Shown here piece after piece: positions 24,811 to 60,400 of a stretch of 64,000 bases of DNA. The notes below the pieces were generated by a model that saw only the letters and a list, made by a program, of their open reading frames with translations, made no database searches and was not told where the DNA came from. Position numbers and translations under genes: made by a program. The DNA comes from Phoronis australis (Eukaryota; Animalia; Phoronida), in the NCBI GenBank assembly GCA_002633005.1, contig NMRA01000081.1, forward strand, positions 251,625 through 315,624, written 5' to 3'. Positions within the stretch are counted from its first letter, which is position 1. Each line of letters starts with the position of its first letter.

Positions 24811-26622
24811 TTTACAGAATTTGTAAAGTGAATACGTCACGAATAGTTCGACGTCACCAATTGTACACGTCAAATGCCAACAACCAGAAATTTCCGAAAA
24901 TATAGACTCACCGCAAACCAAGTACGTCCATTGACGTATTTTCAGAAAAATTTCAAAAAAGTACAACCATGTGCGTATTTTCGGTACGGTTAACATGTCT
25001 TGAAAATCGGACGGACTCGTTTTATCATCCGTATGTAATGTGTTTTGAAGTAAAGATTTATTTTGGTGAGGCATTATATTTTGGGTCTCGCGATTTCACT
25101 CAAATGACTATCATTTATTGAGATATTTGTTGATTTTGCTGGTAACTAAGATTATGAAGGACAATTCTAACAAACTGTGTTTGCCTAATCAGAAATAAGT
25201 ATGGAAGAATAAAATTCTTACCAGTGAGATACAATTACATACATTAAAAAGAACGTGTTTCTTTAAAAATTCACTAATATGTCCGAAAATACGGCTGACT
25301 GGCTACATAATCGTTTTCCTTTGACGTTGTGCCATTGGCCTGTTTTCGTACACAGTCTGACCATTTTGTTGCGATTTCATATTGCGATTCTTTTGAACTA
25401 ACACGAGTTGGTTTGTAAGGGTGACTATTTGTCTGGTGTGAAGTGCACGTGCGATATTTTAGAGTGCAAACCACAGTGACAAATTTTCTCTCCCTCGGTA
25501 TTTTGAAAAATCATTTACGAAATCTCTGCCGAACGTGAATTTTGCTGGTTTGCCTTAGTTTTCGTGGTTCCATGAAGAAAAGGAAAAATACAACGTCTTG
25601 TAAGTATTTATCCATTCAGGGAAGTTCATAGTCAAAACAAAGATAAGGCTAATCGGGAGCAGCTCACTAGAGTACGAAAGTGCGCTATTCCGATGGTGCC
25701 CAAGTACAAAGGCGCACTAGTCCTAAGTTGCACTAGTTGGATGGTTTACTAAACAAGCGAAAACTAAGCCATTAAAATGCAATTTTATTTTTGTCGCCAT
25801 TCTACGTCGTCCATTCCCAAAAGCAGTTATGCCAAAAATAATTTCGTTGCATAATGTTTCCTCTTTTACATGTATACCTCATTTCTAAAGGCTGTCATGA
25901 AGTTCCGTCTGCATAAGACTTGGATGTCACATTAAAGTACTGTGCCAGCACAAGTATCGCGGCAGTGCAGTGTCAATTGTAGTCACTTGCGCGGATGAGT
26001 TTGAGTATCACACCTGCCAATCTACGTTACAGGATTTTTAGTTGGATTATATTCGATTTTGCGGCAGAATTGAGTCAAAATGACTCGCCCCGAGACCATA
26101 GCAATCAAGTTGTTGCCAATTCAAAGTTTTGTTCCGAAAGTACGAACGTAACAGAATAAAGACTGTGAACAATGAAAAGTGTCGTGCATTTAACAAATTC
26201 AAAAACAAGAAGTTTTCCTGCTCAACCAAATTTACAGGAACAAATCTCAAAAGGTATCCCACACTCGAATTGCTCCAAAACCACTTCCTTCAAAGGTAAT
26301 AATGACTTAAGGAGAGGTCCCGCGTTTTGAGAAACATTTTTTCCACTGAACTAACGGCAAACTGGTTTTCAAAATCCAAGACCTTCAAATTTGTGACATT
26401 CATGGAGTAAAACACACTTATCCCTTCAATTTCACTTGGCTGGTGGGCAAATTAACAGTAAGAACCAAACTGCAGAGAGGCTTGAGCGGTAATAACAAGG
26501 CTGGCACCAGAGGGATAAACCATGAAATACAAGCAATGAAATTCGGTAAATTAAAACGTTTATTTGTATAAGTAGTGCAAAACAGTCCATGTATATTATC
26601 TGAACAGAAAACTTAGGTTATG

Positions 26623-33800: not shown

Positions 33801-34081
33801 AGAAGAAACCAGCCCGGAACTGAACGTTGCAGCCCACAAGTCAACAGTGTCGTACGCCAGTGAGAAATGGTCGATACATCATCTCAAAGTAAGGGTCGAC
33901 AAATGTGTATGGGGACTAAGCATTTTTCAGAGGCGTATAAATTTATTGCATAATATAAAATATGCGTGACAATATGAATTAACCCAGAGAACGCAGGGCA
34001 TCGTGGGCCTATAGAAGATAACTAGTTTTCATTCGAACAGGGATGTGACTATAATCATCCCACCGGAGATTAATTGGTTGT

Positions 34082-34146
34082 TTGTGCGTGTGTGTGCGTG
34101 TTTGTGTGTGCGTGTGTGTGTGCGCGTGCGTGCATGCGTGTGTGTA
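34082..34146. repeat. Imperfect (GT/GC)n microsatellite
   Basis: TTGTGCGTGTGTGTGCGTG...GCGTGTGTGT. Confidence 0.9.
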
Positions 34147-34341
34147 AGACGCGGTATTTTTATGTCTACGATGTTGTGTTAGGAGAACCCGTAATGGGTT
34201 TGAAAGCTTGTTTTTCACGTGTTTCAAGCACTATTGGGTATCTTATTGATTATATTTGCAATCAAATAAAGATCGGGGAAGTTTTCAATGAAAACACAAT
34301 ATGGTAAGCCGCCAATAAAACAGAACCATCCAAGGTAATGT

Positions 34342-37300
34342 TTATAAGCCTAATTTATATAAAGGAATTATAAAAAGGGTTGTCTGTAAGAGGAGAGCTA
34401 CGCTGGTACTCAATATTGTCACTACTAACGAAAATGAGATTGTTGGTGCGTTCCCTGGCCTGCACTTCAGATGTTCAAATCTGAAAGAAGAAAATTATGA
34501 AAGTGGTGTAAATATCGTTTTTAAGTCTAAACGGCAAGATGAATGGTGATACCAATGTAAATTACAGTATTGCGCGATGCACGTCACAACGTGTTATTTT
34601 CAGAGATTGAATCATGTGCATTCATAAGGCTATTTTGACACTTTTAACGCGACTGTGGTACACGTCTTTATGAACAATTACACAGTAAAGTTTTTTTCAA
34701 CAAAACCTCTATTGTAACCAATATTCGTTTGTAGAATAACAAAAACGGTGAGTTTTATGTTATTTATTACGAGGAGAAAAGATGAGTAGAAAATTAACCC
34801 TATAAGGCGGATGAAAAACAAAAACCCTACATGCACCTCAATTTTACATTTTATCTTTTTCGTCATATTAATTGACATAAACCTCACCCTTCGTGGTTCT
34901 CTGCAAACTAATTAAGAAGTCTTTTTTACAGACAAATATCGATCGTAAAGTAATTTATTTTCTTTTTATCAGAACTGTATTTCATGGTGTTTCTACTAAC
35001 AACTAATATCGTGCTTGTTTGTCAACTGAGGTCACATGACGCTCTGTTTTAGCTTGTCTAGGTCAGTTGGTTGGCTTCCATTTTCGTTGCAGTTTTCAAT
35101 TTGTTTCTTCACAACAGAAATGGCAGCAAACAAACTGAAGCAGAAAAAGGACTGAATATCTGAAAGTAAAGTGTCACGTGACTTCGTTTGATTAGAAAAG
35201 GGGATGACGATCATAGTAGTTATAAGTAGAAATACAATCAAACATGGTCCCAATAAAAATAATAAATTAAATCTATTTCACTATACTTAAAAACATTTTA
35301 GTTAGATATAGCGGTTTGTAGGGACACCAAAATGTCAAGTTTCACGGTAGATTTTAGACCGGTAAATGAAAATTCTATATTCCTGAACAGATGTTTCTAA
35401 CAAGTTCTAAACTATTAAAGTAAGATTAATAAGTTTCCAATTAAAACAAAATGAAAATCGCGAAGTTGACCCAGCGCATGTTTACCTATACCAACAGCCC
35501 CAGAACTTTAAGAATGGTTCCTCCATTTCTATGGTTTTACATAAGTGATAGTGAACGAATGAATTGATATTTACTTGTTTAATGCTCCTTTCATCTTTTT
35601 CTCATACTCAGCCTCCACCAAAGCCCCATCAAAGAACCATGCGTTTTCCAAGAATGGGTACTCGTAACCTTGTTTGCATTCACATCGGTAGGCGCCGCGC
35701 TCAAATCGCTTGCCTTCCACCGGAACACACTGTTTAGGAAAACGAACGAGTTAGATATACAAATACTTTCAGTATTGAATTCGAAACGAACATTCGGAAG
35801 GAAATACGATGATAAAATTTTGTTCTCATTATATTAGCTACTGAATGAATTTCCATATGTCTTGAAATGGTACCAGAACGAATAATACACATTTCTTATA
35901 AAATCAAATGAACTGCTCTTTTGCGACGAAGCGTTTAAATACTTAAGCCTACCTTGAACGAAGTTTCGTCATTTAAGATGTAACCAGATAGCCCTAAAAA
36001 AGCCTTAGCAAAATATGAAAACACGAGTTTAATCACTAAAGCATGCCTGTCGAATGATAGGTGAAGTTACCCTTTCGTGCTTGGTTGCGTCACAGCGAGA
36101 ACCCAACACAAACAACAAAAGGCCGATAACAGTTGTACTGCATAGGGGTCTGAATAGACCACCATCGTGTGTGGGTCTTGTTCTCAGCTGTTTGAATTAA
36201 AAAGTGATTCTCGAGATGACCAAGACCAAAACAAGCCAATAAGCCTAACAGTGCATTACATTAGACAATTTGTGGCACTGGAGAGTTAAGAGTTATGCTA
36301 TAACTTTGAGACATTTAGTGAGTTAAGAGCTATGCTCTTAACACACTAAATGTCTCAAATTTATAGGCCTTAAATTCCAGCATAGGCTTTAAGGGGGTTC
36401 AACACAGTTTTGATTTATCGTTAACATATTATTCCTTTATTACTGATTAAACAAAGGCATCACTAGCAATGAAGTTATCACGGGTTACTCTAATTAAATT
36501 GGCAGTTGCAATCATTTGAAAGAGGCCACTTTCCTTGTACGATGTCGGTTTTATGTTTTACCAGCTTTAATTCTATTTCCCGGTTGATCAATTTTCTTAG
36601 GTCTAAGTATGTAAACATCTTTTCTGAATTTTGTGTACCTCCACTTTTAGCGTTTTGGATTTTACGCAAAAAGTTAAAAAACTGTTCATGTTTTTCTTTT
36701 GTGGTCTATTTCGATGCCAATCGCGTTTCCTATGGAATATGAAATAAGAAGTTACCGATTTCGCTTTCGTGTTATTTTGTTTAAAACAGGGTCACAAAAG
36801 AATACGCAATTCGACATTCTGAAACAAGTGCCGATTTCAAGATCACCATTACCCCCACCAGGTGGCGTTATCTTATGTTGTTGGGGTTGTATAACAAGTT
36901 TAGTCGCTGAGAAAAATCTAAATTTAGAAGCTTCTTATTTAATGAATTCAAAATTGACGTTTGGATTAATTCACACTTAATGTCCATGTTGGGATTTATT
37001 TAGTATGACGTCATTGTAAAATTGATGTCACGCCAAAATAATGATTACTAAATACAAAAGTAGCATTTTAATTGAGTAATCTGGTATTTCAAATAAAAAA
37101 ATCATATCGAGACGTTTTTATAGGTTAATCAATGTTGTAAAACAGCGACTGCTTTACGGCCATTTTGGAATACTGTGATAAAGCCCCGTTAATCGGTATT
37201 TTAAGCCCGTTTACCAAATATTGACTTTATTACGTTTCATCCAATAAATTGCTACTAAACTTGTTTGCGTGGCCGTGCATATGACAATTATCAAATTGAC

Positions 37301-40300
37301 AGGAATACAATTTAACATTAGGCATTTAATGAGTCTTTACGACAGTATGTGTCGTTTTGAGTGTTTTCTCTTAAATGCTTCTGACTTACGTAGGTTGACT
37401 GGTAGTCACATCTGGCTGTGTCTTTGAACGCGTTCACCTCGAAGACCTCTCCTGGACATTGATTTATGTCCAGAAAATCAAACTTGATATCCACACTCAC
37501 TAAACCTCTATAAACAACAACAACAAAGTAACAGAAGAAGTGTTAATAAAAAAATACAAAACAGGACAAAAATAAATCTAAAAAAGAAAATTCTATTTCA
37601 TGCTACAAAACTCCCTCAAAACTAATGTCTGTGAGGAAACTAAGATGTTTCAATTACGCAGCATGGGGTTTTAGGAGTCGGCGCTATTTCAAAATTCGGC
37701 AGTTCGTATTATTACAAAAAGCCTGCAATGAATGAATGATCAAATTTCCGTGTTTAAAGAACATGACATACGGACATTTTAGGCATGGGAGTTTTTTCGA
37801 ATTTCCACCGTATGTATATTAGACAAATAGTGCAAATAAAACGATCGACTTTCCGTGATTTAACTGAACAAAATTGCGCTTTTGGACAATATATTTAAGG
37901 AAAATGCCTCACTTGAAACGTATGCGTTGCCTATCGAAGTCGCCCTTTCCAAAGAACGGAGCGTAGTACGTGATGATCCACTCACTACCATATTCTGTAC
38001 ACGGGAAGTACGGGGACGACCACATGCCAACATCATAGGGAGCCGCCTTATATTTGGAGGGGTAGGGAAGAAGTTTGACAGTAGGGTAAAGACCATCACG
38101 ATCCACTCTGAAAAAATATGCTTAGCAAAGAAAATGTCGCGTATTATAGGATTACAGAAAAATGTTAAAATTGAGATATCTTCGGCTAGTCGTAATCATG
38201 TGGAACATTCAAATACTATGTTTTATCCACTATTCTCCAAAACTCTGCAAAGAATTGTTTTTAAATAATTCACTTTTGCATAAAGAACTTATGAGTTTCA
38301 TGAAAAAAGTGATAGTATACTTGAGATTTAGTTAATGGACATTATTATTCTTCTTAAAGTGGAGCTTGATGCGGCACTATTTATCCACGTGTCGGAATGA
38401 AACCTTTTGGCATCAAAGACTTGAGATATAGTAAAACGACGCATTTCAAATTGCTGAGATAATGAAAAATACCGACATGTGCGATACTTTGCGATATGGT
38501 GCGCTTCAATCCCGCGTTCCGAAGCCATTTTTTTATTCAGACCGCTTACCATAACAAGGTTGGCCTCAGATTGTTCCTACCGAGGGCGAGGAATGATTTA
38601 TAGGTTAACAAAGAACTGATAGTTTATTAATCTTTGAGACTATGCTCCGCGCATAACATGACACGCTGTGACGCCTCAGGTGTCAAGCAATAACGAACTG
38701 TCGGTTATAAGTGGTATAACTACGAATTATGAGTCTTTTAGCTCAGTGAACTAGAGCGTCCGAAATGTCAGCAGAAAGTACCGGGTTCGATACCCGGTGG
38801 GGACAGAGGCCTTTTAAGACTAAACTCTAGGTCATGCGATATGACCATCATATAGCGTGTAATAATTATTAGCTGAACTGTCAGTTTTTCCGAAACTCTG
38901 TATCACCTAGCTTCAACAGAAATCCCTTTTATTATAGACTACGTCATCTGAACCAATGTTTTTATGGTAGAAGACGTGTTTGTAACAGCCTTCGAGGAAA
39001 TGTATTGTGAAACCGTTGTCATTCCGAGACAGGAATTTTTTTCTGTGCTACAGCAATAACTAGGTAATGAAACAGTCACATGATGGCAGTTTCAAAAAGG
39101 ACGTGCGATATATTTGGTCGTTAGAATGATTTACACTGTCTATGGGATCCAATGAAAATCAAAATGGCGTTTAAATTCACATTTAGTGAAGCACTTTTCT
39201 CTTCAGTGAGACACTAGTTCTCTAAAAGTAATGATCGTGGTTCGTGAGTGGACTTGTTAGAGAAACACTCCCTTGCAACGTGACCTGAGGAAACTATCTT
39301 GTTTAAATCGTCCTATTTCCTCGACAACTTTTAATTCAAGCACAAATACACACTAACTATCTCTTTGTGATAATTCTGTAAAGGCAGCTAACCTGATTTT
39401 AGCAGCTGGCGCGTAAGTTTTCAGTCCATTGGTGTTTGACCTCCATCTAGCTTTTGCTCTTCTGAACCAGTCCGAATGCACGTAACGTCCAAGTTTTGGG
39501 TCCCCAGCCAAGTCTACAGTACTATAAAGACCGTCTTTTTGAAATGCGAACGGAGCAAAGTACTTCCGGCGACGCACATACTCGCCCTCTGTTCCGTATG
39601 GTTCCTCGTATTGGTTTTCATCAAACCAGATACCAAGACCCCTTATCTTATGGTCGGCCATTACAAGTGAGAGTACTTCAGCATGCAGAAGGTCCGGATT
39701 GAGATATTTGTCTCCCTTCACAACACCATGGGACTCCATCCTCTCGACATGTTGCAGAAATGAACTGATGAAATGGGCCAAGGAGAGTGCAGTACGTGCC
39801 TGCAAAATTCAGTTTTACACGTGAATAATTGATAGAGTACCAATTAATCAGTCAAACACAATTTTAAAATACGTCATAAAGACACCTTCACCATAAACAC
39901 GTCAAGTTATATCCAATGATATTATTATGTAGCATGATAGCAGTCAGCCACAATGCTCAAATTCGAGCGGGTTTTTGTGACAATGGCGCAATTTTACAAT
40001 TGCGGACTAAAGGTCCGCCAAAATGGCGCACCGCTTCCCAAAACCTTCCAAATAGTACCCAGACAATGATCTTTATCCCCCCATCCGCCGCACAAAATTT
40101 TGTTTTATTGCTTACAGACACAAAAATAGTCTTTTACAGCACAATCGACAATTCCTTTGCTTACTACTGAGAACGACAAGAAACACCAGTAACCACAGTT
40201 TACTTTAAGTCACACATCTTCTAAACCTGTAGAAACGTAGGCTTCACTGTTTACTTCCAAATTCGAAAGCACGGGGTCATGAACTCTTTTCAATGCAGAA

Positions 40301-43300
40301 AGTCTCGTTTAAATTTAAATTTACTTTTGGCGACCCTGTTTACCGCAATGTGCCTCCAGGTTTTCAAAAACTTCATATTTGGCCCCCTCTTGATGAATGC
40401 TTCTGGCTACTTCTGTGCCCGGCAGAAAGTGACCAGTACCTCTGGCATAACATCAGCAGAGAATTAGTACAGTGGAAGCAATAGCAACTCACCTGATTTT
40501 GAAACTGGTCTTTTGCTCCAAAGCTTACATCTCCTGGAAGGCTTAAGTCGTACTCAGACATTTTCGTACAATCAGACGTTTTCACCTTTTCAATGTGCTC
40601 AAATATCTGCTTCATTCTGTCTATGGCTGAGCCATCAACGTAGTCTCGTCTCGTTCTGGATCTTGCCTTTGTTGTGCTGTTCGATCTATGTTTGTCTTCA
40701 TATGTTCTTTTTTTGAAACCGTAAACCCATCTCATGGTATCGTTGTTTGTATTTTTCTTCCTAAAGGAAATTTTTGTTCTTGGTTTTACACTGACTTTAC
40801 GTACTCTCTCACCGCTCTCCGTGATGTCTTTTAAATCAACTACTTTGCTTTGGCGAGGCATTAATGCCTTTGAATCAACTGCAGCGTCAATTTCATCATT
40901 GATTGCTTTCCGCATCACTGTGTTGAGGTCTGCCTGTAAGAGAGTGGATCGCGTATGATTGTTATTCTGGGACCTTGATGTCTCCAAAGTAAAATCGCGT
41001 GACACAAGCCAGTTTTCAAACATGTTTTTTGGAGAAAGCTGTCTTTTAATTCGCTGTTGTGTCATTATACGTTGTAAAATACGTTATCCATGCATAAACA
41101 ATCGGAAATATCTGTTGAACTGTAGCTGGCTTCTTCATCCACGAGATTAACTTGTGTATTCAATGTTTCGCGAACACATTTTAAAAACCCTCAAAGGAAT
41201 TTACTTTTAAATTATCGACTAGCTGAAGGTGAACATTTTAAATTAGTTTATTAAAATTCTCTAACCCAGTAATGGAAATTAAGTGGCGCTGACACACAGG
41301 ATTGTTGTGCAGCAATTGTACCTGGTTATCTGCGTGTTGCGTTGTCCGTCTTTCAAGGTGTTGTGTCTCGTCAGAACTTGTGATACCCTCATAATTGATG
41401 AAATCTCTTTTCCGACGAGATGTGAAGTTTCCTCGTGCAAGATCACCACTGTTGACGGAAGGAACGACCCGCTGATCTGTAGCACGAAAAAGACTTTGAT
41501 TGGCGGAGTACATCCTTTATGTACGTGTTTTGAATTTGGAGTTTTCTGTCTGCCTTTTGTGCATTCGTTGTATTTTGAATTTAAATAGTTCATTTAACAA
41601 CATCTACCATTTTAAAGCGAACAAGTCCAGCTACTCCCGCGAGTTATAATTCTAAAAAACAGCTGCTCCTTGCCTTAAATTCAGGTGTTTGACACGCTCG
41701 GCTATAGAACAGGCTGATTTCCGGCCTAAGCGCTATAACCGTACATATGTAGCGTGGGAGCTAACCGTTTAGGTCCGAAAACTCAAATCGATTCCCTGAC
41801 ATTTCTTACACAAAGGTGTGACTTAGAGATATTCGTGACCTAAAGGTCATGATAGCGCAAGGCATCATTAAGTTCTTATATAATTAAAAACGTAAATGCG
41901 AGATAATTGAAAGGCATCAATGAAAATGCATTTTATCCGAATTCGGTTTTACAAATCCCTTATATTCATACAAGAACGAAAATGTGGACATAAAACATTC
42001 GCAAAATATTCGTTTACAATGGATGCGTTATTGAAATATGTTAGTACAGGCAAGGAAATTCAATGAGCTTATTTCAGTCTTAACCGAATGGTTCGTGTAA
42101 TTATTTTGTTGGCCTCATTGCTACAGATTAATTTCCGACGTGATAAAGACTGGTGAAATAGGAATATTTTTCTTGGAGGACGACTAATAATTTACTTCCA
42201 CAAATTCGGTTATCTCCTGTTTTATTTCTCTTGTGTTTTATAGGCACGCTCCGACTTCAAATCACAAAAGATCTCTAAACTACCCACCACATTCATGTAC
42301 CCTCCGAACAGGAGGCAAATCGGACGTGTGTGATACGCCGTCTGAAAATAGTTGTCATGCAAAAGCTCGTCAGACATTTGGTCTGCCTTAAAATCATCAG
42401 CCCTGAAATCAGACGGCGGTAGATCTGCCTTCTTACTGTGCAGCGGCTACATTCCAATGACGTAACTTGTGGTAGGCTTTGAATATTAGCCTTTTACTGA
42501 TGTCAAACTAAAGACGGCTGATAGGACGCCTTTGTAAACGCTCATGTAACTGATCTGCCTTCTGGTCAGACGTCCTATGTGCCTTCTCAACGCGACATGA
42601 GACCAAACTTACTGTCAATCTTCAAACAGTCAAATCCGTCTCGGTACTCTTCCTCTGTTGCTATTTCGATGTCGACGCCTTGGAATGGTCCATTCTGCCA
42701 GTGGGGGTATCTGTAACCTGGCCGGCAAACGCATTCGTATCCACCTCGAGCGAAACCAAAACCGCTCAGCGGTTGACACTGAAGTTCAACATGAACACAA
42801 TAATGTAAACCATTTGGGGATAACAAATTTATGTTAACACTCTTGAAGGGGGTACAGTTGCGTATTATACAGGCAATCACATGTTAAGTCGAAACGAACC
42901 CAACTATTCAGTCTCAGTGTTTTAGACATTTTAGCTGAGTTTCGAAAACCAGTGTTTATGAATCTACGCTTCTAATTTAAAATGTACATCGCTAGGTGAT
43001 TCGAAGCATCAATTACAGTACTTTACCTTCTTAAGTTATTTTCTAAATTATATTGAGAGTACAACGAACACTTACTATTTGGTCACTTATAAGTCCTTGC
43101 AAACTTAGTCGTAACACGTTTTCAAACTATTTCATCACATCACATAAGCTGGAGAAACAACAGGCTGATGTCGAAGAGAATGGATAACATAGACCCTCGG
43201 CTTCAATTCGTCAGCGGTCACGCAACATATCACGGCTATTTTTGATGTCCTTCCGTTTTCGTTGATTTGTCTTCGCTAGAGACTAGTATTGATTCATATA

Positions 43301-46300
43301 ACTTCGCGACTCAACGAGGCAAATGCGGCCGTAACCCCTTTGAAGTTGACGTGATTAGATTATTTCTGTGTAGCACGCGTTGAAAACACAAAAACTTTGA
43401 CTTTTCCCAAAAACCAATGCTGTGACAAAACAGCTTAAAACAGAAACGCTTATAAAGCACAATTCCACTGTGGTCATATCTACACAATGAAAATAACACG
43501 TAAGTAACATCTCCCTTACACTTGATAGAGTCTTGCCCAACTTTTTGTAACATAAGGAGCAATCTACTGGATGTCACTGTCACATGCCTACAACATATAG
43601 TGCATGACAACAAATGGAAAAGTCTGTCCGTTTTTTTAAGGAGACTGGCAGACTTGAAAACTTCCTTCACGAAGAAGCATTACGAGGCTCTCGTGCTTTT
43701 AGCTCAGGTGTTTTGTGCATTGGGCCCAACCAAGAGGACTGCGTACGTCAGATGCACCGCAAATGACACCAGACCACCTGTATTGCTTTTTTTCTCAATA
43801 ACTATTTTACAAAATAAAATGACGTAGGCTTAATGTATTTGACGGAAATACAAGATGATTTCTAAAACTAGCACAGTATAGACAAGAATACACACCTCTG
43901 GTTATGATCCTATCCAAAGCGTTGTTACGAAGTGTATTAGAATCTCAGTTTATTTGGCGCCGTAGTGTTAATCAACTAAAACATACCTCTGGCGTGTTCT
44001 TTGATTACGTGGGTCTTACGTCATGGCATTTGATTAAAAATTTAAAAGAGATTCGATTATATATGACATCGGTTTCGGATTACTGCTTACTTTCTCAGAA
44101 AAGTTGTTGAAACTACTTTTCCTTTAGAACACAGTGGTATCACCAAATTATAAACATTTCGTAACCTTCAGCCCTGTCTGTTTTTGCTTTATTTTACTTT
44201 TAATTTCTTATTTTTTCTTTTAAAGTGACGGGGTTTCTGTGAAAACCTCATTACACATGGCGGCAGTTGAGTGAGTACCCAAAATGCAGAATTTGCGTTG
44301 TGCATTACCAGATACTTAGCAAACTCGCAAGGTCTTGTTTGTTATATTACGGTGACGTAAACAATATTTTTTGCATGCAGTACATAATTACTCTTTCATT
44401 TGGCTATTCCCTTCTGAAATTGTAAATCACTGTCTTACATGGCTTTCAGGCGTTTACGTATTTGTAGTAACTATGAACTGTATTATCACAGCTGTCGTTT
44501 ATTTCATTTCTGTTTTGTTTGAGACAAACTGTCCGACTTTGTAGTATTCTTCGAATGTGTAGAGTTGTTGCCTATGTTCAGTGCCTTTGAAGATGACACA
44601 CCTTGGCCCAACAGTTTGTCAAGGCTCACCTGCGTGGTGGGTTTGCATCTGGCGACCCCTGCAAACATGTTTGGCCCTGGATTGCCTACGCCTTCCGGGC
44701 ATACATTAATATCTATCATATTCCAGTCTATGTCCATGGTAGCCACAGCAACAAATCTGTAAACACAGTACAAAAACACAATTTAACAATTTCTTTTGTC
44801 ATCTGCACGTAAAACCAACACCTGACTGTTGACGTATATTGTGGCATTGTGGGTAACTACCGCGATATTCGGGTGCCGCTGTTTAATCCAGGACGGCCCT
44901 ATTGAGCTTACGTTTTGCCTTTTAGTATTGCACACAATAGGCAAAACCATCACCAATGATCCGTGTAATCAGAAAGACAAGACTGTCTAATATCTAATAC
45001 TCTCATTCCCACCTATTCTGCGAGCGATNAATTATTTTGTTGGCTTGTGTTGCTCATTCCTACAGATTAAGACTGGAGAAATAGGAATATTTTTCTTGGA
45101 GGACGAGTAATAATTTACTTTCACAAATTCGGTTATCTCCTGTTTTATTTCTCTTGTGTTTTATAGGCCCGCTCTGACTTCAAATCACAAAAGATCTCTA
45201 AACTACCCACAACGTTCATGTACCCTCCGAACAGGAGGCAAATCGGTCGTGTGTGATACGCCGTCTGAAAATGGTTGTTGTGTAAAAGCTCGTCAGACAT
45301 TTGGTCTGCCTTAAAGTTATCAGCCCTGAAATCAGACGGCAGATCTGCCTTCTTACTGTGGGGCGGCTACATTCCAATGACGTAACTTGTGGTAGGCTTT
45401 GAATATTAGCCTTTTACCGATGTCAAACTAAAGACGGCTGATAGGACGCCTCTGTAAACGCTCATGTAACTGATCTGCCTTCTGGCCAGACGTCCTATCT
45501 GCCTTCTCAACGCGACATTAGACCAAACTTACTGTCAATCTTCAAACAGTCAAATCCGTTTCGGTACTCTTCCTCTGTTGCTATTTCGATGTCGACGCCT
45601 TGGAATGGTCCATTCTGCCAGTGGGGGTATCTGTAACCTGGCCGGCAAACGCATTCGTATCCACCTCGAGCGAAACCAAAACCGCTCAGCGGTTGACACT
45701 GAAGTTTAACATGAACACAATAATTTAAACCATTTGGGGATAACAAATTTATGTTAACACTCTTGAAGGAGGTACAGTTGCGTATTATACAAATTCAGGC
45801 AATCACATGTTAAGTCGAAACGAACCCAACTATTCAGTCTCAGTATTTTAGTGTTTATGAATCTACGCTTCTAATTTAAAATGTTCATCGCTAGGTGATT
45901 CGAAGCATCAATTACAGTATTTTACCTTATTAGTTATTTACTAAATTATATTAATAGTACAACGAACACTTACTATTTGGCAAACTTAGTCGTAACACGT
46001 TTTCAAACTATTTCATCACATCTCATAAGTTGGAGAAACAACAGGTTGATGTCGAAGAGAATGGATAACATAGACCCTCGGCTTCAATTCGTCAGCGGTC
46101 ACGCAACATATCACGGCTATTTTTGATGTCCTTCCGTTTTAGTTGATTTGTCTTCGCTAGAGACTAGTTTTGATTCATATAACTTCGCGACTCGAACAAG
46201 GCAAACGCGGTCGTAACCCCTTTGAAGATGATGTGATTAGATTATTTCTGTGTAGCACGCGTTAAAAACGCAAAAACATTGACTTTTCCCAAAAACCAAT

Positions 46301-49300
46301 GCTGTGACAAAACAGCTTAAAATAGAAACGCTTATGAAGCACAATTCCACTGTGGTCATAATGAAAATAACACGCAAGTAACAACTCTCTTACACTTGAT
46401 AGAGTCTTGCTCAACTTTTTGCAACATAAGGAGCAATCTATTGGATGTCACTGTTACATGCCTACAACATACAGTGTATGGCAACAAATGGAAAAGTTTG
46501 TCCGTTTCTTTAAGGAGACAGGCAGACTTGAAAACTTCCTTCACGAAGAACCATAACGGGGCTCTCGTGCTTTTAGCTCAGGTGTTTTGTGCAATGGGCT
46601 CAACCATGAGGCCTGCGCATGTCTGATGCACCGCAAATGACACCAGACCACCTGTATTGCTTTTTTCTCAATAACTATTTTACAAAATAAAATGACGTAG
46701 GCTTAATGTATCTGACGGAAATACAAGATGATTTCTAAAACTAGCACAGTATAGACAAGAATACACACCTCTGGTTATGATCCTATCCAAAGCGTTGTTA
46801 CGAAGTGTATTAGAATCTCAGTTTATTTGGCGCCGTAGTGTTAATCAACTAAAACATACCTCTGGCGTGTTCTTTGATTACGTGGGTCTTAGGTCATGGC
46901 ATTTGAATAAAAATTTAAAAGAGATTCGATTATATATGACATCGGTTTCGGATTACTGCTTACTTTCTCAGAAAAGGCGTTGAAACTACTTTTCCTTTAG
47001 AACACAGTCACCAAATTATAAACATTTCGTAACCTTTAGCCCTGTCTGTGTTTGCTTTAATTTACTTTTAATTTCTTATTTTTTCTTTTAAAGTGACGGG
47101 GTTTCTGTGAAAACCTCATTACACATGGCGGCAGTTGAGTGAGTACCCAGAATGCAGAATTTGCGTTATGCATTATCAGATACTTAGCAAACTCGCAAGG
47201 TTTTGTTTGTTATATTACGGTGACGTAAACAATATTTTTTTGCATGCAGTACATAATTACTCTTTTATTTGGCTATTCCCTTCTGCAATTGTAAATCACT
47301 GTCTTACAAGACTTTCAGGCGTTTACGTATTTGTAGTAACTATGAACTGTATCATCATAGCTGTCGTTTATTTCATTTCTGTTTTTTTTTTAGTCAAACT
47401 GTCCGACTTTGTAGTATTCTTCGAATGTGTAGAGTTGTTGCCTATGTTCAGTGCCTTTGAAGATGACACACCTTGGCCCAACAGTTTGTCAAGGCTCACC
47501 TGCGTGGTGGGTTTGCATCTGGCGACCCCTGCAAACATGTTTGGCCCTGGATTGCCTACGCCTTCCGGGCATACATTAATATCTATCATATTCCAGTCTA
47601 TGTCCATGGTAGCCACAGCAACAAATCTGTAAACACAGTACAAAAACACAATTTAACAATTTCTTTTGTCATCTGCACGTAAAACCAACACCTGACTGTT
47701 GACGTATATTGTGGCATTGTGGGTAACTACCGCGATATTCGGGTGCCGCTGTGTAATCCAGGACGGCCCTATTGAGCTTGCGTTTTGCCTTTTAGTATTG
47801 CACACAATAGGCAAAACCATCACCAATGATCCGTGTAATCAGAAAGACAAGACTGTCTAATATCTAATACTCTCATTCCCACCTATTCTGCGAGCGATCT
47901 TGGGGCAAAAGATATCGTTGGCCGTTGGTTGAAAAGTATGCTCGTAAATTAGGACACTTTCACGCCCGTGTTTTACAAACTGTAATTACGGGCGCACATT
48001 TACGAGATTGGATGAGGTTATGTAGGAGCCTAGAATAATGACTAAATTTGGCACCGATCGGAACATCATATCTTAGAAATGGTTGATTTGATTTACAAGA
48101 AACTTCGGATACTTCGCTCTATGCAATGTCCTCCAAAATGCCACAAGGAATTGTTTGTTAAGTGTCTCACTTTTGCAAGACAGGCTACCAAAGCGGGACT
48201 TTTAAAATTTTTATGAAAAAATCAAAATTTGAATAAAATTAAAACGAAGTGATCATTTAGAAAATTGTAACAGGGTTTTTGAGAACATTTATTTTTTAAA
48301 CAAAATTTAGTCAAGTTACTGGAGTCGTTGTTTTGCTTTGAACGTACCTTTCTTTTAGCTAAATTTTATTAAAAAAACATGGTCAGGTGACCCATTGGCA
48401 AATTGGTACAAAGTCAAAAATCAAATCCTGCAGAGTTTTTACTTCCAGACAAAATACTTTCACGGAGTCTAATTCTGTAGTTTTGTAGATACCGGTATTT
48501 GCCCCAGTAAACAGACATGTCGATAAGCTCTTACAACACTTTAACTGTTGAAATATTTACGCTCCATGATCTACGCTCGTCGTTTTACGCCCGTTGTTTT
48601 ACGAAACTTGAAAGACGACTGTAATTTACGACATTGATTTTTCTGGTGTACAACTTCTTCAGAGCTCACATGATCTGTAACCTAATCTCTCACTAGACAT
48701 AACGATCACGCTCGCAAAACACGGTCGTGAGAAGTGTCTTTAAGCCCGAAATTTAGGGGGTCAAGTACAAAACGAAGCATTTGAAACGTCCCTTATGTCA
48801 TTCGCTTATTTGCGTTAGATTGTCTGTGTATTGGCAGGAGCCATGTCCCGTCTCGTCTAGTACAGTTGCCCTCTTACGCACATGAATTGCTCGTGACTGT
48901 ACAGAAACAACAAAACTGCACTATAGATCTGAACGGTCCATGCAACACCTTTTGATATAAGTCAGTAGTTAAATCATGGCCTTTCAAAATGTCTCTTACT
49001 CGACTCAATGGCCCTCAAGCAAATGGTTGGGTTATTACAGTGCTATGAAAGAATTGAGTTATTGCTTGCGAACAGGTTGTACAATATTTAGCTTGTCACG
49101 GCGAGTCATTTTAAGAGTCAAGCACTGCCTCAAGGAATAACGATCTACCAGTACTTCAAAAATCCAGATATCTCTTCTCATCTGAAACTAATTGAAACCA
49201 ATTATAAAACCGCAAAAGAAGTATATCAAGAGTTCGTGTTCGGGTTTACAGATGCGTATTAAAGCAATGCCCACCTTTGCGGCGTTTCGCCAAATTCTGT

Positions 49301-50224
49301 AATGATGTTTTCAGGCCTGTATCTAGGTATGGCATCGACAATGGGCGCTGCTGCTGACATCATCCAAACGTTCCTGCCGCCACAATCAAAATAGGGTAGG
49401 GTGTAACGAACTGGTAAATTCGCGTTATCCTTCAACCTGGTCAGTGGAGGTCCAAAGAAGTTAACGCCTTTGAATGTTTCGTCCTGCCATTTTCCAGGTT
49501 TATCCCACTTGGCATATTTCACACCTACTGTATAGGATCCTTTAAGATTGTCGTCAGCAGTGAAATCAGGAAGCCAACTACGGTAGCGAATATGCCTCGC
49601 TCCAGACTCTTTGTCTGTATAGTTTCTCTGGTTTCCTGTACCCATGTCATTTATGTGAATACGATTCATTGACGGTCCACGAACCCAGAATCTGTTGGGC
49701 ATAAAGTTCACATTTCGAGTAGCGCGTGGCGCGAACAACTCAATGGTTGTATTGAGAGAAACCGAATTTATCCAATTTGGATAAGCGGCCTTGTAGTCGA
49801 ACTCAATACTAGAGCCGTTGATGCATTTGGGAAATGCGGTGAGGAAACTTGCTTGCCTCCAATAATAATATTGCAATCCAGGTTGCTTCCAAAAACCTTG
49901 TGTGCCGTTTGTCGCGTTCAGTTGTTTAAACACGTAACTGAAGAAAAAGCCCCTGCTTAAAGCTAAGTCGTGTAGCGCCAACACACACGTCCTGTTCCTA
50001 AAAACCCGTGTGTTGATGTCCAACAGCTGGTTTGACTGCGGCAGCATGGACACCGTCTCTGCTGGAAGAGTCAGTTCGGCAGGTGTCATTGAGCCGCAGT
50101 TACTGCTATCCACTCCGATGTACTGTTTCATGACGGTATCAAAGGCATCACGACCAACCCAGTCAAATGGACCGCCACATGTTAAGGACACAAATGAAAA
50201 ACATAACAAAATAATAAACATCAT
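34342..50224 (-). CDS. Predicted 990-aa cell-surface protein with two tandem GPR158/GPR179-like ectodomain modules (Cache-like + EGF-like), a furin-site linker and a GPI-type tail; no 7TM (paralog A, complete)
   Basis: Ten GT-AG exons join in frame (2973 nt including stop): 50224-49275, 47626-47500, 45698-45533 (duplicate exon 2/3 set at 44756-44630 and 42778-42613), 41476-41322, 41053-40493, 39799-39393, 38107-37913, 37507-37390, 35729-35575, 34480-34342. Signal peptide MMFIILLCFSFVSLTCG. Motifs YTLPYFDCGG..W / WSSPYFPC..W, DINVCP / DINQCP and GGYECVCRPGY / GAYRCECKQGY resemble the GPR158 ectodomain as I recall it (WSSPYLEC, VDIDQC, GAYECICKAGF). C-terminus CRPGNAPTISFSLVVTILSTSVALLLQTTLFIIPLYKLGL*. 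The exon-5 acceptor is weak. Confidence 0.85.
36299..36365. repeat. Near-perfect 32-bp-arm palindrome (intronic, MITE-like)
   Basis: TATAACTTTGAGACATTTAGTGAGTTAAGAGC-TAT-GCTCTTAACACACTAAATGTCTCAAATTTATA. Confidence 0.8.
38733..38805 (+). mobile_element. tRNA-derived SINE head or tRNA pseudogene (intronic)
   Basis: A-box-like TAGCTCAGTGAACTAGAGC and B-box/T-arm ACCGGGTTCGATACCCGGT; weak acceptor stem; anticodon arm does not pair. Confidence 0.55.
42100..47898. repeat. ~2.9-kb near-identical tandem duplication (~42100-45028 vs 45030-47898) containing exons 2-3 of paralog A; probable haplotype/assembly artefact
   Basis: The two copies abut at the single N (45029) and differ only by scattered SNPs and small indels. 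Confidence 0.85.
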
Positions 50225-54466: not shown

Positions 54467-57400
54467 CTACAAAAGAAAAGCTAAGCAGGTACTCAGTACT
54501 GTTAACGTTAAGGAAAATGAGATTGTTGATGCGTCTGCTGGCCTGCACTTCAGGTGTTCAAATCTGAAAGAAGAAAATTGTGAATGTAATAGAATTTTCA
54601 AGACTAAACTGCAAGACTAATGTAAAATACAGTATGAAAAGAAGCATATCATGTATGGTTTTCAATGACCGAATCATGTGCACTCGGAAGGTTATTTTAA
54701 CGCATTTTTCACGCAACTGCTTTTGACTGCAAGGAGCAGGTCTATAACAAAGTATAGCACAAGGATGTTTGTCTCAACAAGAGACCTGCTGTCAGTGACC
54801 AATAGTAGTCGGCAAAGATGATTTGCGAACCAGTTTGCACAGAAACAAACCAGCTGATCACAATGAAACAAGTTTGATTTACAAAATGTTTTATTGGGAC
54901 AATATTTTGTTGTGTTTAACACAATTGCTACTATATTTTTGTCACCTTGCAGGGACAGTAGGTCCAGTAAGCCTGTCGAGTGCAAAACATGTCTCAAGAA
55001 AAATTACTTATAAAATAACTCTACTAAATTATATTTAGAAATAGATCCCTTTATCTAAAAGGGTATATTATTAAAAACGTTTTACTTCAATAGGCACTCA
55101 GTATTGCCTAATCTAGTTTAAGCTATTGCAATAAGTTTTGTACTACATCAAAATAAAATAAGAATTTGAACTGTCATGTTTAGTACATATTCAAACATGT
55201 ATCAGTACCAGCACATGTATACCTTTAGCCAAAAACTCTAAATGTACCTACTTGACAGTGAACGAATGAATTGATATTTACTTGTTTAATGCTCCTTTCA
55301 TCTTTTTCTCATACTCAGCCTCCAACAAAGCCCCATCAAAGAACCATGCGTTTTCCTGGAATGGGTACTCGTAACCCTGTTTGCATTCACACCGGTAGGC
55401 GCCGCGTTCAAATCGCTTACCTTCCACAGGAACACACTGTTTAGGAAAACGAACGAGCTAGATATAATAACTACCGTCAGTATTGTATTGGAAAGGAACA
55501 TTCTGAAATATTTCTTAGAAAGTCGAATGTTTAAGATTTTAACGCTTACAATATTTTTAATCAATATTTTAATCCGGTTTTGCCTTGTACTATCATTTTC
55601 AGTTTAACGACCCATGTTGCCAAATATTGACTTTTATGGTTATACCCATTAAATTACTGCGAAACCAACTTTTTGAGGTGAAAATGTGTTCAAGTGGAAT
55701 AAGTGTCCGATTCTTATAATCTAGGTCCCATATTCAGGTCCTGTATTCAGGTCCTATATTCAGGTCCTGAATTCAGGTCCTATATTCAGGTCCTACTGGT
55801 GTCTTCTTCTAGACCTTTGCATCAGGTCTCTGGTTCCTTCAACTCAATTTTAACTATATATTACATAGGCGGATTTGGGGGGAGGGGGGCATCCCCCTTT
55901 GGCTACCGCAAAAAATAAAACAGCAAGAGAGTAGGGAAATGTTGAGAATATTAGTTAACCCCGGTAATTAACATCACAACAAATTCTATGCACAAAATGC
56001 GCTTTTGGTTCATGTTATGTAACTAGTTAGTTTCTATTACAATATATATCAAAGCAAGATAATGTAAAAAATCTTACTTGATTTACAGAAATGGGTTACA
56101 TTTGGATTATTAAGTGTGACGCTTACTCGAGTCCTTCTGCGTCATAGCTTCATGGTATTTATCATGCTAATCAATTTCTAGTTTAAGGACGAAAATTTTT
56201 ATGGTACGCAGTAGTTATGATCACAGTTATGCATGTCTACTTTCATACTTAACGTGAGCTTAGTTCACCCTGTATTGCTGAAAATTTTCAGTGTACATTC
56301 TAAGGAACTTACTTAGCTACAATGAATGTTTTGAAATGAAACCCGTGCGACACGATACAACCCGTGCGTCCAATTCATTTTTATCTCTCATGAGAATGTG
56401 ACAGCTAGTGACAAAATCAGATTTGTGTGGAATCGGTTAAGCGATTAGCATCCTGTGAACATGATAAAACTCAGTTAAAGTGACTTCTTATATTCTATGT
56501 AATGATAATCAGATAATAAGGTGGACCTTACCAGGGCACCACTTAGCAACTGACGGGGGAGCACAGGTTAGGCGCATGAATAATTTCCCAAGTACCACAA
56601 CTGTCACTGGTGTGGCAGCACAGGTTAGACTCATTCGAAAACGTGCGTGTAAATAACATTTAGTTTTCGGCTAAATTAGAAGTTAGAAATGGAAAACAAA
56701 AACGATTTTAGAGTGCAGCATATAAACGACGTTTCGATATTACTTAAAAGTCGTCCTCAGGTACAATAGTAGACAAAAAACAAAATATCGTAACAGAATT
56801 AGATTAATATTGAAACATTGTTCTCAAACATGCATGTGTCATCGTTTCCCCGATGGAAACGTTTTGGCCAAATTTCATGAAATTTCACCAAAGATATCTA
56901 GTTATAGAAATTGTCACCAGGGTGCCAGCAGTAGTCAAAATATCTAAAAATTGACATCACCATAGAAACAGATTTTCAAAAATCAATGAAAAACCTTTAT
57001 GAGATACGGCCCTGTAAAATAGGCGACGATATGTCTTTTCTATCGGCTGTTGCTTGAATACAAACGAAAAGTCAATATTTTTAATCAGACAGCAAACTGA
57101 TGAAAAGTATCATTGGAAATCACCAGCACTCTGCAAACTGACCCCCCAGAGCAGCTCAAATATGGATTAAAGTCAAAGACACAAAATTGGGCAAAATTTA
57201 CCGAACTTTGGCACTCCAATGGAGGTTAACGGAAACCCCTTTGAAAATTCAAAGACTGTCTGCTGACAGAGAGGTTCAATGACTACATAAACATTATAAA
57301 TATTTTTTCTTTCCCGTTCTTTAAAGCCATTTTAACTTCACTAACTGAAACTTTTTGAACCAAAAATGAGCTGTTTTGGGCTAAAATATTCATGTAGCTC

Positions 57401-60400
57401 TAACCTAAAAAAATAATTGCCCAAAAATTTCAAATAAGCATCTTTAATATATTCCACCTGGATGTATGGGCACACAATTTTTTTCAAGATCTGAGTCGGT
57501 GACCCCTGCGTCGACCTTTTGGTGCTTTCGTGGAATGACAGTTAACACTTATGAACTATGTTATTAGAGAAACGTGACACAAAAGAATAAGTTTCAAAAC
57601 ACGGAGACTAGTTATTCTACACTGAAAACACACCGTTATTGAAACAGGGACAAAAACACTTCACAGTTTTTTGACAGATGAGCGTATGAATGTACATGGC
57701 AGCAGACAAGGAGAGAGTCTGTAAATGAACATTTACGGCTGCACGTGTCCTTGTTAGAGCAGAAATTTCTTTTCACAAAATCAGTTTCTGACTTACGTAG
57801 GTTGACTGGTAGTGACATCTGGCTGTGTCTTTGAACGCGTTCACCTCGAAGACCTCTCCTGGACATTGATTTATGTCCAGAAACTCAAACTTGATATCCA
57901 CACTCACTAAACCTCTACAAGCGATAATAAAGAAACCAGATCAACAACAAAAATTGAAAATTTACAAAGACATTTTTAATTCAGCTATAAAAGTGGCAAC
58001 GAACAACTTTGTTAGGAGTCTAGCTACAAAATTCCCAAAAAATGAAGTATCTATGTGTAAATTTCAGTGTTTCAATTGAACATCATATGGGCATTTTAGG
58101 AGTAGGCGCTATTTCAAAATTCCGCCGCATGTACATATTAGAAAAATCCTGGAAAAAGTACAACATAAAAGAGATTTCCCTTACATTTCCAGTGATTTTT
58201 GCGCTATGTATTTAAGGAAAATGTCTCACTTAAAGCGAAGGCGTTGTCTATCGAAGTCGTCCTTTCCAAAGAACGGAGCGTAGTACGTGATGATCCACTC
58301 ACTACCATATTCTGTACACGGGAAGTACGGGGACGACCACATGCCAACATCATAGGGAGCCGCCTTATATTTGGAGGGGTAGGGAAGAATTTTGACAGTA
58401 GGGTAAAGACCATCACGATCCACTCTGAAAAAAATGCTATTAGTAAACAAAATGTCACATACGCCGCACGTGGGTGGGGCACCATAGGGGGCTGGAGGCT
58501 AAAGCCCCTCTTTTTTCAGTGCTGTGCCGCCCATGGTTTATGGGCGGTGCACCAAAGGGGGCTGGGCAGCTATAGCTCTCCCACTTTTTTCAGTGCTGCG
58601 CAGTCCGTAACTGTTAACAAAACATGAGCTTCAGCGGATACTTGCGATACAGGTTGATGGACTATACCATTCTTTCAGGTGTGAAATTCGACAATACGTT
58701 ATTTGTCGGTAATGTCCGAATTACAATTTTCGCTTTGAAAATTATTAAATTCAGTGCTGAGAAACTATACAAATACCAACACTTTCAGAGTTGTACTATT
58801 TTTTGCTTTGTTTCGACTAAAGTTAGGCCATGAACAATAAGAATCGTCACCCGATGACTGTTTCAAAAAGGACTTGCGACACTTTTTCGTCGTTACTCTA
58901 GTTTACACCTGTGGCAATGGTATCTATCGAAATTTAAAACTGATTTAAATGTAATTCAACGTTTAGAAAAAATATGACTTTTATCTTTCGTGAAACACTG
59001 AATTATTAGATTACTGTTTATTTCCATCTTAAGGAATTGAACAAAAAATGACACAATTATTGCCCGCACAGTGAATTGACCTATCGCAAGCTCCGCCCCA
59101 TTGCAAAATGTCAACAAACAAACTAGTAACAATAAATTTTACATGGCAACGAGTAGTTTGTCAGGTAAAATGGCGACTTGCAAACGAATGTGTGTCAATG
59201 AGGCTGCGTTGTGCTTGGTCAATTAAGCCGTTACTCAAACTCCTTGCAATAGGTCAATGGGCTCCAAGCAATGTCCCAAGTTATGACGTCTAGAGATACA
59301 GGCCTCTGAAACGTGTCCTGGTGTGGATATCTCACTTGAATCATCCGAATGTATTATCAACTTGGGTACAAATACACCATTACTGACCCTTTATGTCACA
59401 ACCTTTTGAACGAAACTAACCTGATTTTACCAGCAGGGGCGTAGGTTTTCAGTCCATTGGTGTTTGACCTCCATCTATCCTTTGCTCTTCTGAACCAATC
59501 CGAATGCACGTAACGTCCAAGTTTAGGGTCCCCAGCCAAGTCTACAGTACTATAGAGACCGTCTTTTTGAAATGCGAACGGAGCAAAGTACTTCCGGCGA
59601 CGCACGTTCTCGCCCTCTGTTCCGTATGGTTCCTCGTATTGGTTTTCATCATACCAGACACCAAGACCCCTTATCTTATGGTCGGCCATTACAAGTGACA
59701 GTACTTCAGCATGCAGAATGTCAGGATTGAGATATTTGTCTCCCTTCACAACACCATGGGACTCCATCCGCTCAACATGTTGCAGAAATGAACTGATGAA
59801 ATGGGCCAAAGAGAGTGCTGTCCGGGCCTACAAAATTCAATATTAAACCTGAAAAATTACGTTGTAAACCAATGAACCATAACATGACTTTTTAAAATGA
59901 GTTAAAACAACTGCATTAGAGCGCGCAATGTTTTATCCGATGATAATTATATATAACTTACTTCCAGGCATGTGGTTAGTAATTGTCATAGGCGCTGTTC
60001 GAAGTTGAGCCCGTTTTTATGACAATTGATGTCGGTACTGGTACATCATACCTCGAAATCATGCAAGTCTTCCTTTTCCACTCAAACATGCAGGAAACGC
60101 CGGTAACAACACTTAACATTTTAGCTCGCTCATTTTTCAGTCCTGAGAGGACCTTAAGTGCACTATTTTCTTAGGAAAATTCGAACTCTTCTTTAGTAAT
60201 ATTTAATTTACACAATGTCGACAGTCATACAGGATTTCATAACTACAAGAAATCAGCACAGAATCAACACACTTGAAGCAATGACAACTCACCTGATTTT
60301 GAAATTGGTCTTTTGCTCCAAAGCTGACATCTCCTGGAAGGCTTAAGTCGTACTTAGACATTTTCGTACAGTCAGACGTTTTCACCTTTTCAATGTGCTC

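Follow-up and report, generated by a model that had tools for sequence, protein, structure and literature searches.

Gene A, the subject of this report, is a genuine transcribed gene in a window of 64,000 nucleotides (the whole stretch of Phoronis australis DNA that was analysed), and carries two copies of the PF22572 Cache and EGF-like ectodomain of the GPR158/GPR179 type. Our preferred reading, held tentatively, is that the gene encodes a two-module paired head lacking seven transmembrane segments (7TM), likely GPI-anchored, which would serve as a non-signalling co-receptor or ligand trap. The family to which it belongs is large, conserved across invertebrates and apparently unstudied.

Gene structure and transcription

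Before RNA was considered, the gene was modelled as ten minus-strand exons with GT-AG splice signals throughout and a single open reading frame of 990 aa closed by TAA. The exons, splice signals and open frame of this preliminary description are reproducible from the sequence, but its length does not stand: stranded RNA-seq contradicts the exon 5 acceptor at 41053, which was dropped in favour of 40933, giving a protein of 950 aa from which the RIKR site is absent (Table 1). The RNA data were raw reads from three samples of the same species, with ~18% of each run read; run X3 was without exon signal. In runs X1 and X2, eight of nine junctions were supported, by 5 + 4 reads (exons 2-3), 6 + 6 (3-4, mapped onto a duplicate copy of exon 3), 12 + 9 (4-5), 13 + 11 (5-6), 25 + 25 (6-7), 16 + 25 (7-8), 21 + 16 (8-9) and 18 + 25 (9-10), counts that may include reads from the tandem paralog B at the 90% identity setting used. 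Junction 1-2 was not among the joints listed in either of two read mappings of these runs. Stranded RNA depth is present over exon 1, where all reads mismatch the window at the five sites listed, so that paralog B or a second allele may be their source.

Table 1. Features of gene A and its surroundings, in window positions
Feature	Position	Strand	Evidence
Exon 1: predicted signal peptide (~aa 1-17), helical and Cache part of module 1	49275..50224	-	
Exon 2: final Cache strand, first half of EGF-like domain 1	47500..47626	-	
Exon X: likely alternative first exon (approximate 5' end)	46769..46848	-	RNA
Exon 3: second half of EGF-like domain 1	45533..45698	-	RNA
Exon 4: linker, furin-type RRKR (aa 435-438)	41322..41476	-	RNA
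Exon 5: basic linker with RTRR (aa 559-562), then the beginning of module 2	40493..40933	-	RNA-corrected
Exon 6: module 2 dimer-face helices, first Cache strands	39393..39799	-	RNA
Exon 7: module 2 Cache core	37913..38107	-	RNA
Exon 8: final Cache strand, first half of EGF-like domain 2	37390..37507	-	RNA
Minor in-frame cassette exon, 51 nt, 17 aa inside EGF-like domain 2	35953..36003	-	RNA
Exon 9: second half of EGF-like domain 2	35575..35729	-	RNA
Exon 10, coding: C911 (final conserved Cys), an omega-like run of small residues, the hydrophobic tail and TAA	34342..34480	-	
3' UTR to AATAAA at 33947	33942..34341	-	RNA depth
Tandem 2.9-kb duplication around a single N at 45029	42099..47898	n/a	93.9% identity
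Paralog B, exons 3-10 (exons 1-2 outside the window)	54467..62534	-	Sequence and RNA junction letters

At the 3' end, RNA-seq bears out the proposal that the transcript terminates in exon 10, which encodes the hydrophobic tail. That the lack of a 7TM is an artefact, with transcripts running on to 7TM exons, could be argued from the fraction of each run read and the three samples available. Against this, 43 reads in runs X1 and X2 join exon 9 to exon 10 and none leave either exon for elsewhere, depth stops at the sole AATAAA within 1 kb, none of 81 downstream minus-strand ORFs contains two hydrophobic segments, the only hydrophobic stretches in the protein are residues 1-23 and the C-terminus, and the whole family ends alike. 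The artefact reading is thus largely refuted and extremely improbable, and the absence of a 7TM claimed from the sequence is upheld.

Exons 2, X and 3 are present twice, with copies either side of the N at 45029; the second copies of exon 2 (44756-44630) and exon X (43975-43896) are identical, and that of exon 3 (42778-42613) matches at 165 of 166 nt. The duplication is likely two haplotypes joined in the assembly. The cassette exon, which gives a 967-aa form, was included in 8 + 1 and 3 + 3 junction reads versus 21 + 16 skipping it.

Paralog B encodes a protein ~88% identical to gene A over 579 aa, and paralog-B-specific letters at its junctions are present in RNA. The hydrophobic tail had been described as kept in both paralogs; it is present in both, but its extent differs, as paralog B has 25 residues after the last Cys and stops 14 residues earlier, at a TAG that is CAG in gene A.

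Exon X, previously unannotated, lies in intron 2, has no ATG and contains stops in the exon 3 frame; a transcript starting there would have no signal peptide and its first in-frame ATG only after three upstream ORFs. The idea that it is a poison cassette spliced in after exon 2 and before exon 3 was rejected, with no joint found within 46670-48200. In the second read mapping, X-3 reads (13 and 12) outnumbered 2-3 reads (7 in X1), and much of the RNA in these samples would therefore not encode the two-module protein. This would suit a relaxed, lineage-specific paralog whose main RNA, started at exon X, makes no functional surface protein, with paralog B or another copy being the active one, as would the mismatched exon 1 reads, a tail running past paralog B's stop and the long branch (1.0) on which module 1 sits. 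We nevertheless consider relaxation quite unlikely: every frame is open, all 16 family cysteines and 56 of 59 conserved module-2 positions are retained, reads matching gene A exon 2 do splice into exon 3, and although module 1 is altered at 13 of its 84 highly conserved positions, comparable losses occur in other homologues (68/87 and 75/87).

Domain identity and the invertebrate family

The two modules of gene A are 32% identical over 145 aa (E 5e-16). Pfam identified PF22572 fragments in exons 2, 3, 7, 8 and 9, all scoring under the curated cut-off because the exons divide the domain, and exons 1 and 6 taken singly had no meaningful sequence match in the PDB. A word-based search of longer proteins with exon 1 returned none of 1332 candidates, later shown to be a false negative, and exon 1 folded without an alignment reached a pLDDT of 31.5 and was not used. 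The family profile matched GPR158 (E 1.5e-18) and GPR179 (1e-14) in the PDB, and nothing else. The fold was modelled on an octopus homologue ~37% identical to gene A (pLDDT 76.8, pTM 0.79), both modules of which matched GPR179/GPR158 and bacterial Cache sensors. Pfam, profile and model thus agree on the two GPR158/179-type Cache and EGF-like modules first recognised from the sequence, and none of the three findings named beforehand as contrary to that reading (onward splicing into 7TM exons, lack of a Cache fold, an already characterised family) was encountered.

The preliminary description had suspected that uncharacterised invertebrate homologues were already in databases, and the layout is indeed not peculiar to this genome: hundreds of uncharacterised proteins share it in molluscs, flatworms, a tardigrade and arthropods including Drosophila. 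Members include Octopus XP_014776491.1, Drosophila simulans GD20036, Anopheles AGAP001418, Aedes AAEL002869 and Locusta WOZ29507.1, and some are named 'G-protein coupled receptor 158' in databases despite lacking a 7TM. The best lophotrochozoan matches are 33-37% identical to gene A over full length, and identity from shrimp to insects is 58-65%. Among 230 homologues of 700-1200 aa, a redundant and arthropod-heavy set, 201 have a hydrophobic tail and none has three or more internal hydrophobic segments. All ten full-length homologues showed two PF22572 matches and no 7tm_3, which was likewise unmatched in 18 homologues. First and second modules form separate clades (support 100/100), and on this phylogeny the module duplication predates the split of molluscs, flatworms, tardigrade and arthropods. 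Gene A shares the features of this tandem, 7TM-less family in the clade placement of its modules, its cysteines and the tail after its last Cys. A biased profile search brought in no named member from the deuterostomes or cnidarians. No description of the tandem 7TM-less form was found in the open literature searched, supplements and the D. melanogaster gene name apart.

Predicted pairing, cleavage and anchoring

When modules 1 and 2 of the octopus homologue were modelled as a complex, they scored 0.84 versus 0.00 for the best of three controls, with at least 76% of contacts shared between runs and a partner pLDDT of at least 72; the score mark used is attained by 51 of 78 solved pairs and 2 of 108 mismatched ones. 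The predicted interface is formed by the helix pair and outer strands, as in the dimers of GPR158 and GPR179 (PMC8611064, PMC11437087), and since these dimers have been solved, the pass may reflect likeness alone. The single-chain pseudo-dimer originally proposed is thus favoured by a model of GPR158/179-like pairing through two long Cache helices within one chain of the homologue. Interface positions rank among the most conserved in the family, and four near-invariant interface charges are complete and unchanged in 60 of 81 rows. Gene A has lost the Asp of module 1 together with the Arg of module 2 and retained the reciprocal Arg/Glu, a pattern to be expected should the charges pair across modules, but four other rows without the module-1 Asp still keep the Arg.

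Furin motifs occur in 15 of 16 long linkers versus 1 of 43 short ones, a concentration that makes cleavage look dispensable, and cleavage as a general trait, as first suggested, does not hold. We considered whether furin might free a module to swap into a receptor dimer through the helical face of its own predicted pairing, so that the protein would act on 7TM GPR158-type receptors as a dominant negative or an obligate partner. The shared dimer surface and the furin motifs flanking the linker of long-linker members speak for such a partner, but the model has both faces already taken up inside the chain, and as 42 of 43 short-linker members have no furin motif, their modules would be inseparable; we regard this role as decidedly unlikely.

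An omega-like small-residue site was found in 57 of 58 tails, at a median of 28.5 residues past the last Cys, by our own loose heuristic with no control set, suggesting that the GPI-type tail first described in gene A is common to the family. By the same kind of heuristic, both paralogs fit the pattern of signal peptide, omega-like site and terminal hydrophobic run with no cytoplasmic tail, and GPI anchoring of the gene A protein is predicted. At 39 residues its tail is the second longest, and could form a single-pass helix.

The binding pocket

The preliminary description had also entertained amino-acid sensing, which the pocket residues speak against. By motif mapping rather than superposition, the carboxylate-binding Arg of YxxxxRxWY (dCache_1AA) is missing from both modules in gene A and the family. 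The GPR158 residues S172/R173, its glycine-pocket pair, align with different residues in the tandem family. Small-molecule binding, in which one Cache pocket takes an amine or amino acid and either relays a conformational change to a partner or serves to buffer the ligand at the membrane, seems to us unlikely. In its favour, pocket-region residues of module 1 are conserved family-wide (N 54/57, S 55/57, W 51/57, Y 52/57, D 56/57), with an acidic residue in its last strand in 56 of 57; the amine sensors TlpQ (Z 10.5), PctD (9.3), CqsR (9.2) and McpX (9.2) outrank amino-acid sensors (Z 6.6-7.9) in fold comparison with the octopus model; and the two dCache-motif residues that contact amino groups, a Tyr and an acidic one (PMC8915833, PMC10589655), are apparently retained, judged by motif likeness only. 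Against it, in addition to the lost residues above, stand the replacement in gene A of the conserved pocket 1 Trp by Arg and of the Asp of the pocket 2 PYFDC motif by Pro, and the fact that GPR179 itself gives no response to glycine (PMC11437087); a common fold, moreover, proves no function.

Proposed mechanism and comparison with known systems

Under the paired-head reading, the predicted signal peptide would route the protein into the ER, each module would clasp the other with its first pair of long helices and with swapped beta-hairpins, and GPI would be attached just past the last Cys. On the cell surface the protein would bind, as co-receptor or trap, the sort of extracellular ligand recognised by GPR158/179 heads. 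In this animal, furin may excise the basic linker, leaving module 1 non-covalently on the anchored module 2, and in arthropods the short linker would stay uncut. Because both dimer faces would be consumed within the molecule, it would offer a ready-made asymmetric dimer surface. Its ligand would be a protein of matrix or proteoglycan type, presented to or withheld from a separate transmembrane partner; pikachurin is such a ligand for GPR179. More speculatively still, the family may be an ancient animal lineage of GPI-anchored GPR158/179 dimer mimics, serving Smog and other GPR158-type receptors of invertebrates as co-receptors or ligand traps.

GPR158 (mGlyR) and GPR179 (PDB 7EWL, 7SHE, 8IRJ, 8D1B) share with gene A the N-terminal helices, the Cache/PAS core and the cysteine-rich EGF-like domain, and gene A is predicted to pair via the same helices (PMC8611064, PMC11437087). 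Their dimers consist of two receptor chains, whereas gene A places two divergent modules in one, does not keep the glycine-pocket residues of GPR158 and, having no 7TM or cytoplasmic tail, would not couple to RGS7 or G proteins. With the uncharacterised invertebrate family it shares a predicted signal peptide, two PF22572 modules, all cysteines and a short hydrophobic tail; its own features are the tandem paralog pair, a divergent module 1 with the additional Cys pair C80 and C134, the longer tail, the internal first exon and the cassette exon.

The alpha2delta proteins, which are cleaved and GPI-anchored, had been offered as an analogy, and an anchored auxiliary subunit of the alpha2delta/CACHD1 kind, trafficking or tuning an ion channel, would have the same multi-Cache, extracellular, membrane-tethered layout (with alpha2delta-1 reaching Z 7-7.8 when folds were compared). 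However, alpha2delta and CACHD1 are defined by a VWA inserted in nested dCache_1 domains (PMC8915833), whereas gene A has side-by-side single Cache modules with EGF-like domains and no dCache_1AA motif, no VWA was matched in any exon or homologue examined, and sequence matches are restricted to GPR158/179. The analogy is loose at best beyond the multi-Cache layout, and a channel subunit is very improbable.

Ectodomain-only decoys and co-receptors such as the sFRPs, GPI-anchored DcR1 and GFRalpha likewise have a receptor-type binding domain without the signalling body, on unrelated folds; to our knowledge, none of them is a fused pair mimicking both halves of an obligate receptor dimer. GPR158-type receptors are obligate dimers and mostly orphan. 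The fusion of both halves, the loss of the 7TM and the 58-65% identity from shrimp to insects suggest that the paired head has its own job. A Drosophila orthologue makes this idea directly testable, the tandem chain lends itself naturally to ligand fishing as a soluble reagent and, should the family be one of dimer mimics, the conserved fly orthologue would provide soluble bait for the ligands of orphan receptors.

Gene architecture and family membership

The minus-strand gene A very probably encodes two Cache+EGF units of the GPR158/GPR179 type (modules 1 and 2) in one chain that lacks a seven-transmembrane (7TM) body. Ten GT-AG exons joined from DNA reproduce the 990-aa frame of the preliminary description, with hydrophobic stretches confined to its two ends, but RNA places the exon 5 acceptor at 40933, giving a protein of 950 aa. 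The modules align with each other (E 5e-16), and Pfam matched pieces of PF22572, the extracellular domain of GPR158/179, in exons 2, 3, 7, 8 and 9, with weak PDC/Cache matches in exons 1 and 6; in the ESM Atlas, exon 1 fell among clusters of PDC and of GPR158/179 (0.92–0.95).

Gene A belongs to a large family whose members are present in databases unnamed or misnamed. Exon 1 retrieved 134 representatives at E ≤0.001 (15 at 1e-30), with named full-length matches being uncharacterised proteins from octopus, scallop, Biomphalaria, Macrostomum, Schistosoma, tardigrade, nematomorph and shrimp. The shrimp protein gave 289 further matches at 1e-20; among the 120 listed, the named ones were all arthropod, with insects at 58–65% identity, and Drosophila members have 807–810 aa. 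The proposed pair of modules was borne out by two PF22572 matches in all ten full-length proteins scanned and by a family profile whose sole PDB matches were GPR158 and GPR179. The Pfam 7TM model, 7tm_3, was found in none of 18 scanned homologues and was not shown for an ESM Atlas cluster of 1026 members, all PF22572. Out of 369 proteins collected, 230 were of 700–1200 aa: 201 had a hydrophobic tail, none had three internal hydrophobic segments, and the 29 tail-less proteins mostly seem to be truncated isoforms or just below threshold. A tree built on 39 modules of 21 proteins (without outgroup, the window's genes not firmly placed) separates modules 1 and 2 at 100/100, so the module duplication took place before arthropods parted from molluscs and flatworms.

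Shorter relatives from Batillaria, Lineus and Littorina (546–605 aa) seemingly have two Cache units without EGF-like domains or tail, and may be secreted pseudo-dimers made of Cache units alone, or else truncated gene models. A 7TM-less member from Locusta (WOZ29507.1, 797 aa) is deposited as 'G-protein coupled receptor 158'; a search of a limited literature collection found neither a matching paper nor a published description of the tandem 7TM-less form, which the accessible portions of PMC12716839, PMC12834959, PMC6778782 and PMC4868058 do not describe.

Transcription and assembly

Stranded raw reads labelled as the same species, aligned two times, covered gene A exons on the expected strand in runs X1 and X2, coverage not seen in X3, and eight of nine junctions were recovered. 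Exon 9 splices to exon 10 only and RNA depth ends at AATAAA, confirming the proposed terminal exon, with no onward splicing to a 7TM seen; among 81 minus-strand ORFs farther downstream, each of at least 45 aa, none had two hydrophobic segments. A minor 17-aa cassette is inserted in EGF-like domain 2.

Three observations oppose a simple ten-exon model. Junction 1–2 is absent from the RNA junctions displayed; at five displayed exon-1 sites (three silent, two not) every read mismatches the window, so these reads may derive from another allele or from tandem paralog B; and an extra exon X is spliced to exon 3 by 13 reads in one sample and 12 in the other, more often than exon 2 is (exon 2–3: seven in X1). 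Since no upstream joint was seen and RNA depth is absent above 46878, exon X is probably an alternative, internal first exon. Transcripts starting there lack the signal peptide, and their earliest in-frame ATG (478 aa) is preceded by three short ORFs.

A 2.9-kb block with exons 2, X and 3 occurs in two copies (93.9% identity) separated by a single N, and is read as two haplotypes put in tandem by assembly because the exons of both copies are identical or nearly so. The same N separates exon 1 from exons 4–10; the gene A model therefore crosses an assembly join and could be a chimera of alleles or paralogs.

Coordinates of features in the window
Feature	Position	Strand	Basis or remark
Gene A	50224–34342	minus	ten exons
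Gene A exon 1	50224–49275	minus
AATAAA	33947		end of RNA depth
Exon X, ~80 nt, intron 2	46848–46769 (copy 43975–43896)	minus	RNA
TATA-like stretch	near 46935		close to exon X
Single N	45029		between block copies
Paralog B	from past window end to 54467		sequence
Intronic repeats	36100–36200, 43540–43660, 46505–46666, 48250–48450		draw RNA reads on both strands, all runs
Multi-exon myosin heavy-chain tail gene	about 3400–18600	plus	Myosin_tail_1 E 6e-6 at 11596–12003; presumably myosin XVIII-like
Acidic low-complexity ORFs, overlapping chain, different frames	22380–25095	minus	no Pfam match found; next to an N at 22197
Internal repeat in acidic ORF chain	23240–23429 / 24032–24231		

Linker and anchor

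In gene A, the motifs RRKR and RTRR sit at the two ends of the basic linker. Furin-type motifs are found in 15 of 16 long linkers against 1 of 43 short linkers, which suggests that cleavage is lineage-dependent and that the architecture does not need it; cleavage, part of the layout proposed earlier, is not supported as a general feature. By our own rule, 57 of 58 family rows have an omega-like site. The tail past the last Cys has a family median of 28.5 residues, with 25 in B and 39 in A, where CAG replaces the TAG of B; at that length, A could be anchored by GPI or as a single-pass protein.

Predicted structure and function

AlphaFold2 modelled the octopus homologue XP_014776491.1 as two ordered modules with a disordered linker. 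The Cache fold first suggested from sequence was recovered in structure searches of this model: Foldseek ranked GPR179 (E 9e-12) and GPR158 on top and also found bacterial Cache sensors, and VIA-align covered both modules (GPR179: Z 10.6, rmsd 4.7, 242 residues; TlpQ: Z 10.5, rmsd 3.1, 161 residues). As separate chains, the octopus modules are predicted to bind (score 0.84, best control 0.00; contact agreement at least 76%, partner pLDDT at least 72), in agreement with the single-chain pseudo-dimer proposed earlier; the binding mark was reached by 51/78 solved and 2/108 mismatched pairs (eukaryotes 71/105 and 2/126). The predicted interface sets helices 96–149 against 551–606, plus crossing strands, an arrangement described for GPR158 in an excerpt of PMC8611064 and, similarly, for GPR179 in one of PMC11437087. 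Because those dimers are already solved, the pass may reflect likeness to them. A further argument, independent of this model, comes from a near-invariant charge quartet: gene A has lost two of its residues, the Asp of module 1 and the Arg of module 2, and retained the reciprocal pair. Such a joint loss would be expected for cross-module pairing, although four other rows lacking the module-1 Asp alone weaken this argument. Cysteines at aa 80 and 134 of gene A, not conserved in 57 homologues, lie at either end of the module-1 helix pair and possibly form a new disulfide.

Glycine sensing by the gene A protein is unsupported, because the amino-acid motif YxxxxRxWY (PMC8915833, in excerpt) is without its Arg in both modules and GPR158 S172/R173 align with different residues in the family. 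Aromatic and acidic positions of the type reported for amine sensors (PMC10589655, in excerpt) are kept in module 1 across the family, gene A changing one per pocket, and an amine ligand is possible.

Identities as a GPCR or as an alpha2delta subunit were both rejected for the gene A product. The most economical reading, held tentatively and at somewhat less than even confidence, is that the protein would be an asymmetric, pre-assembled copy of the GPR158/179 head dimer, tethered at the cell surface, that would bind an extracellular ligand, with any signal coming via a separate partner.
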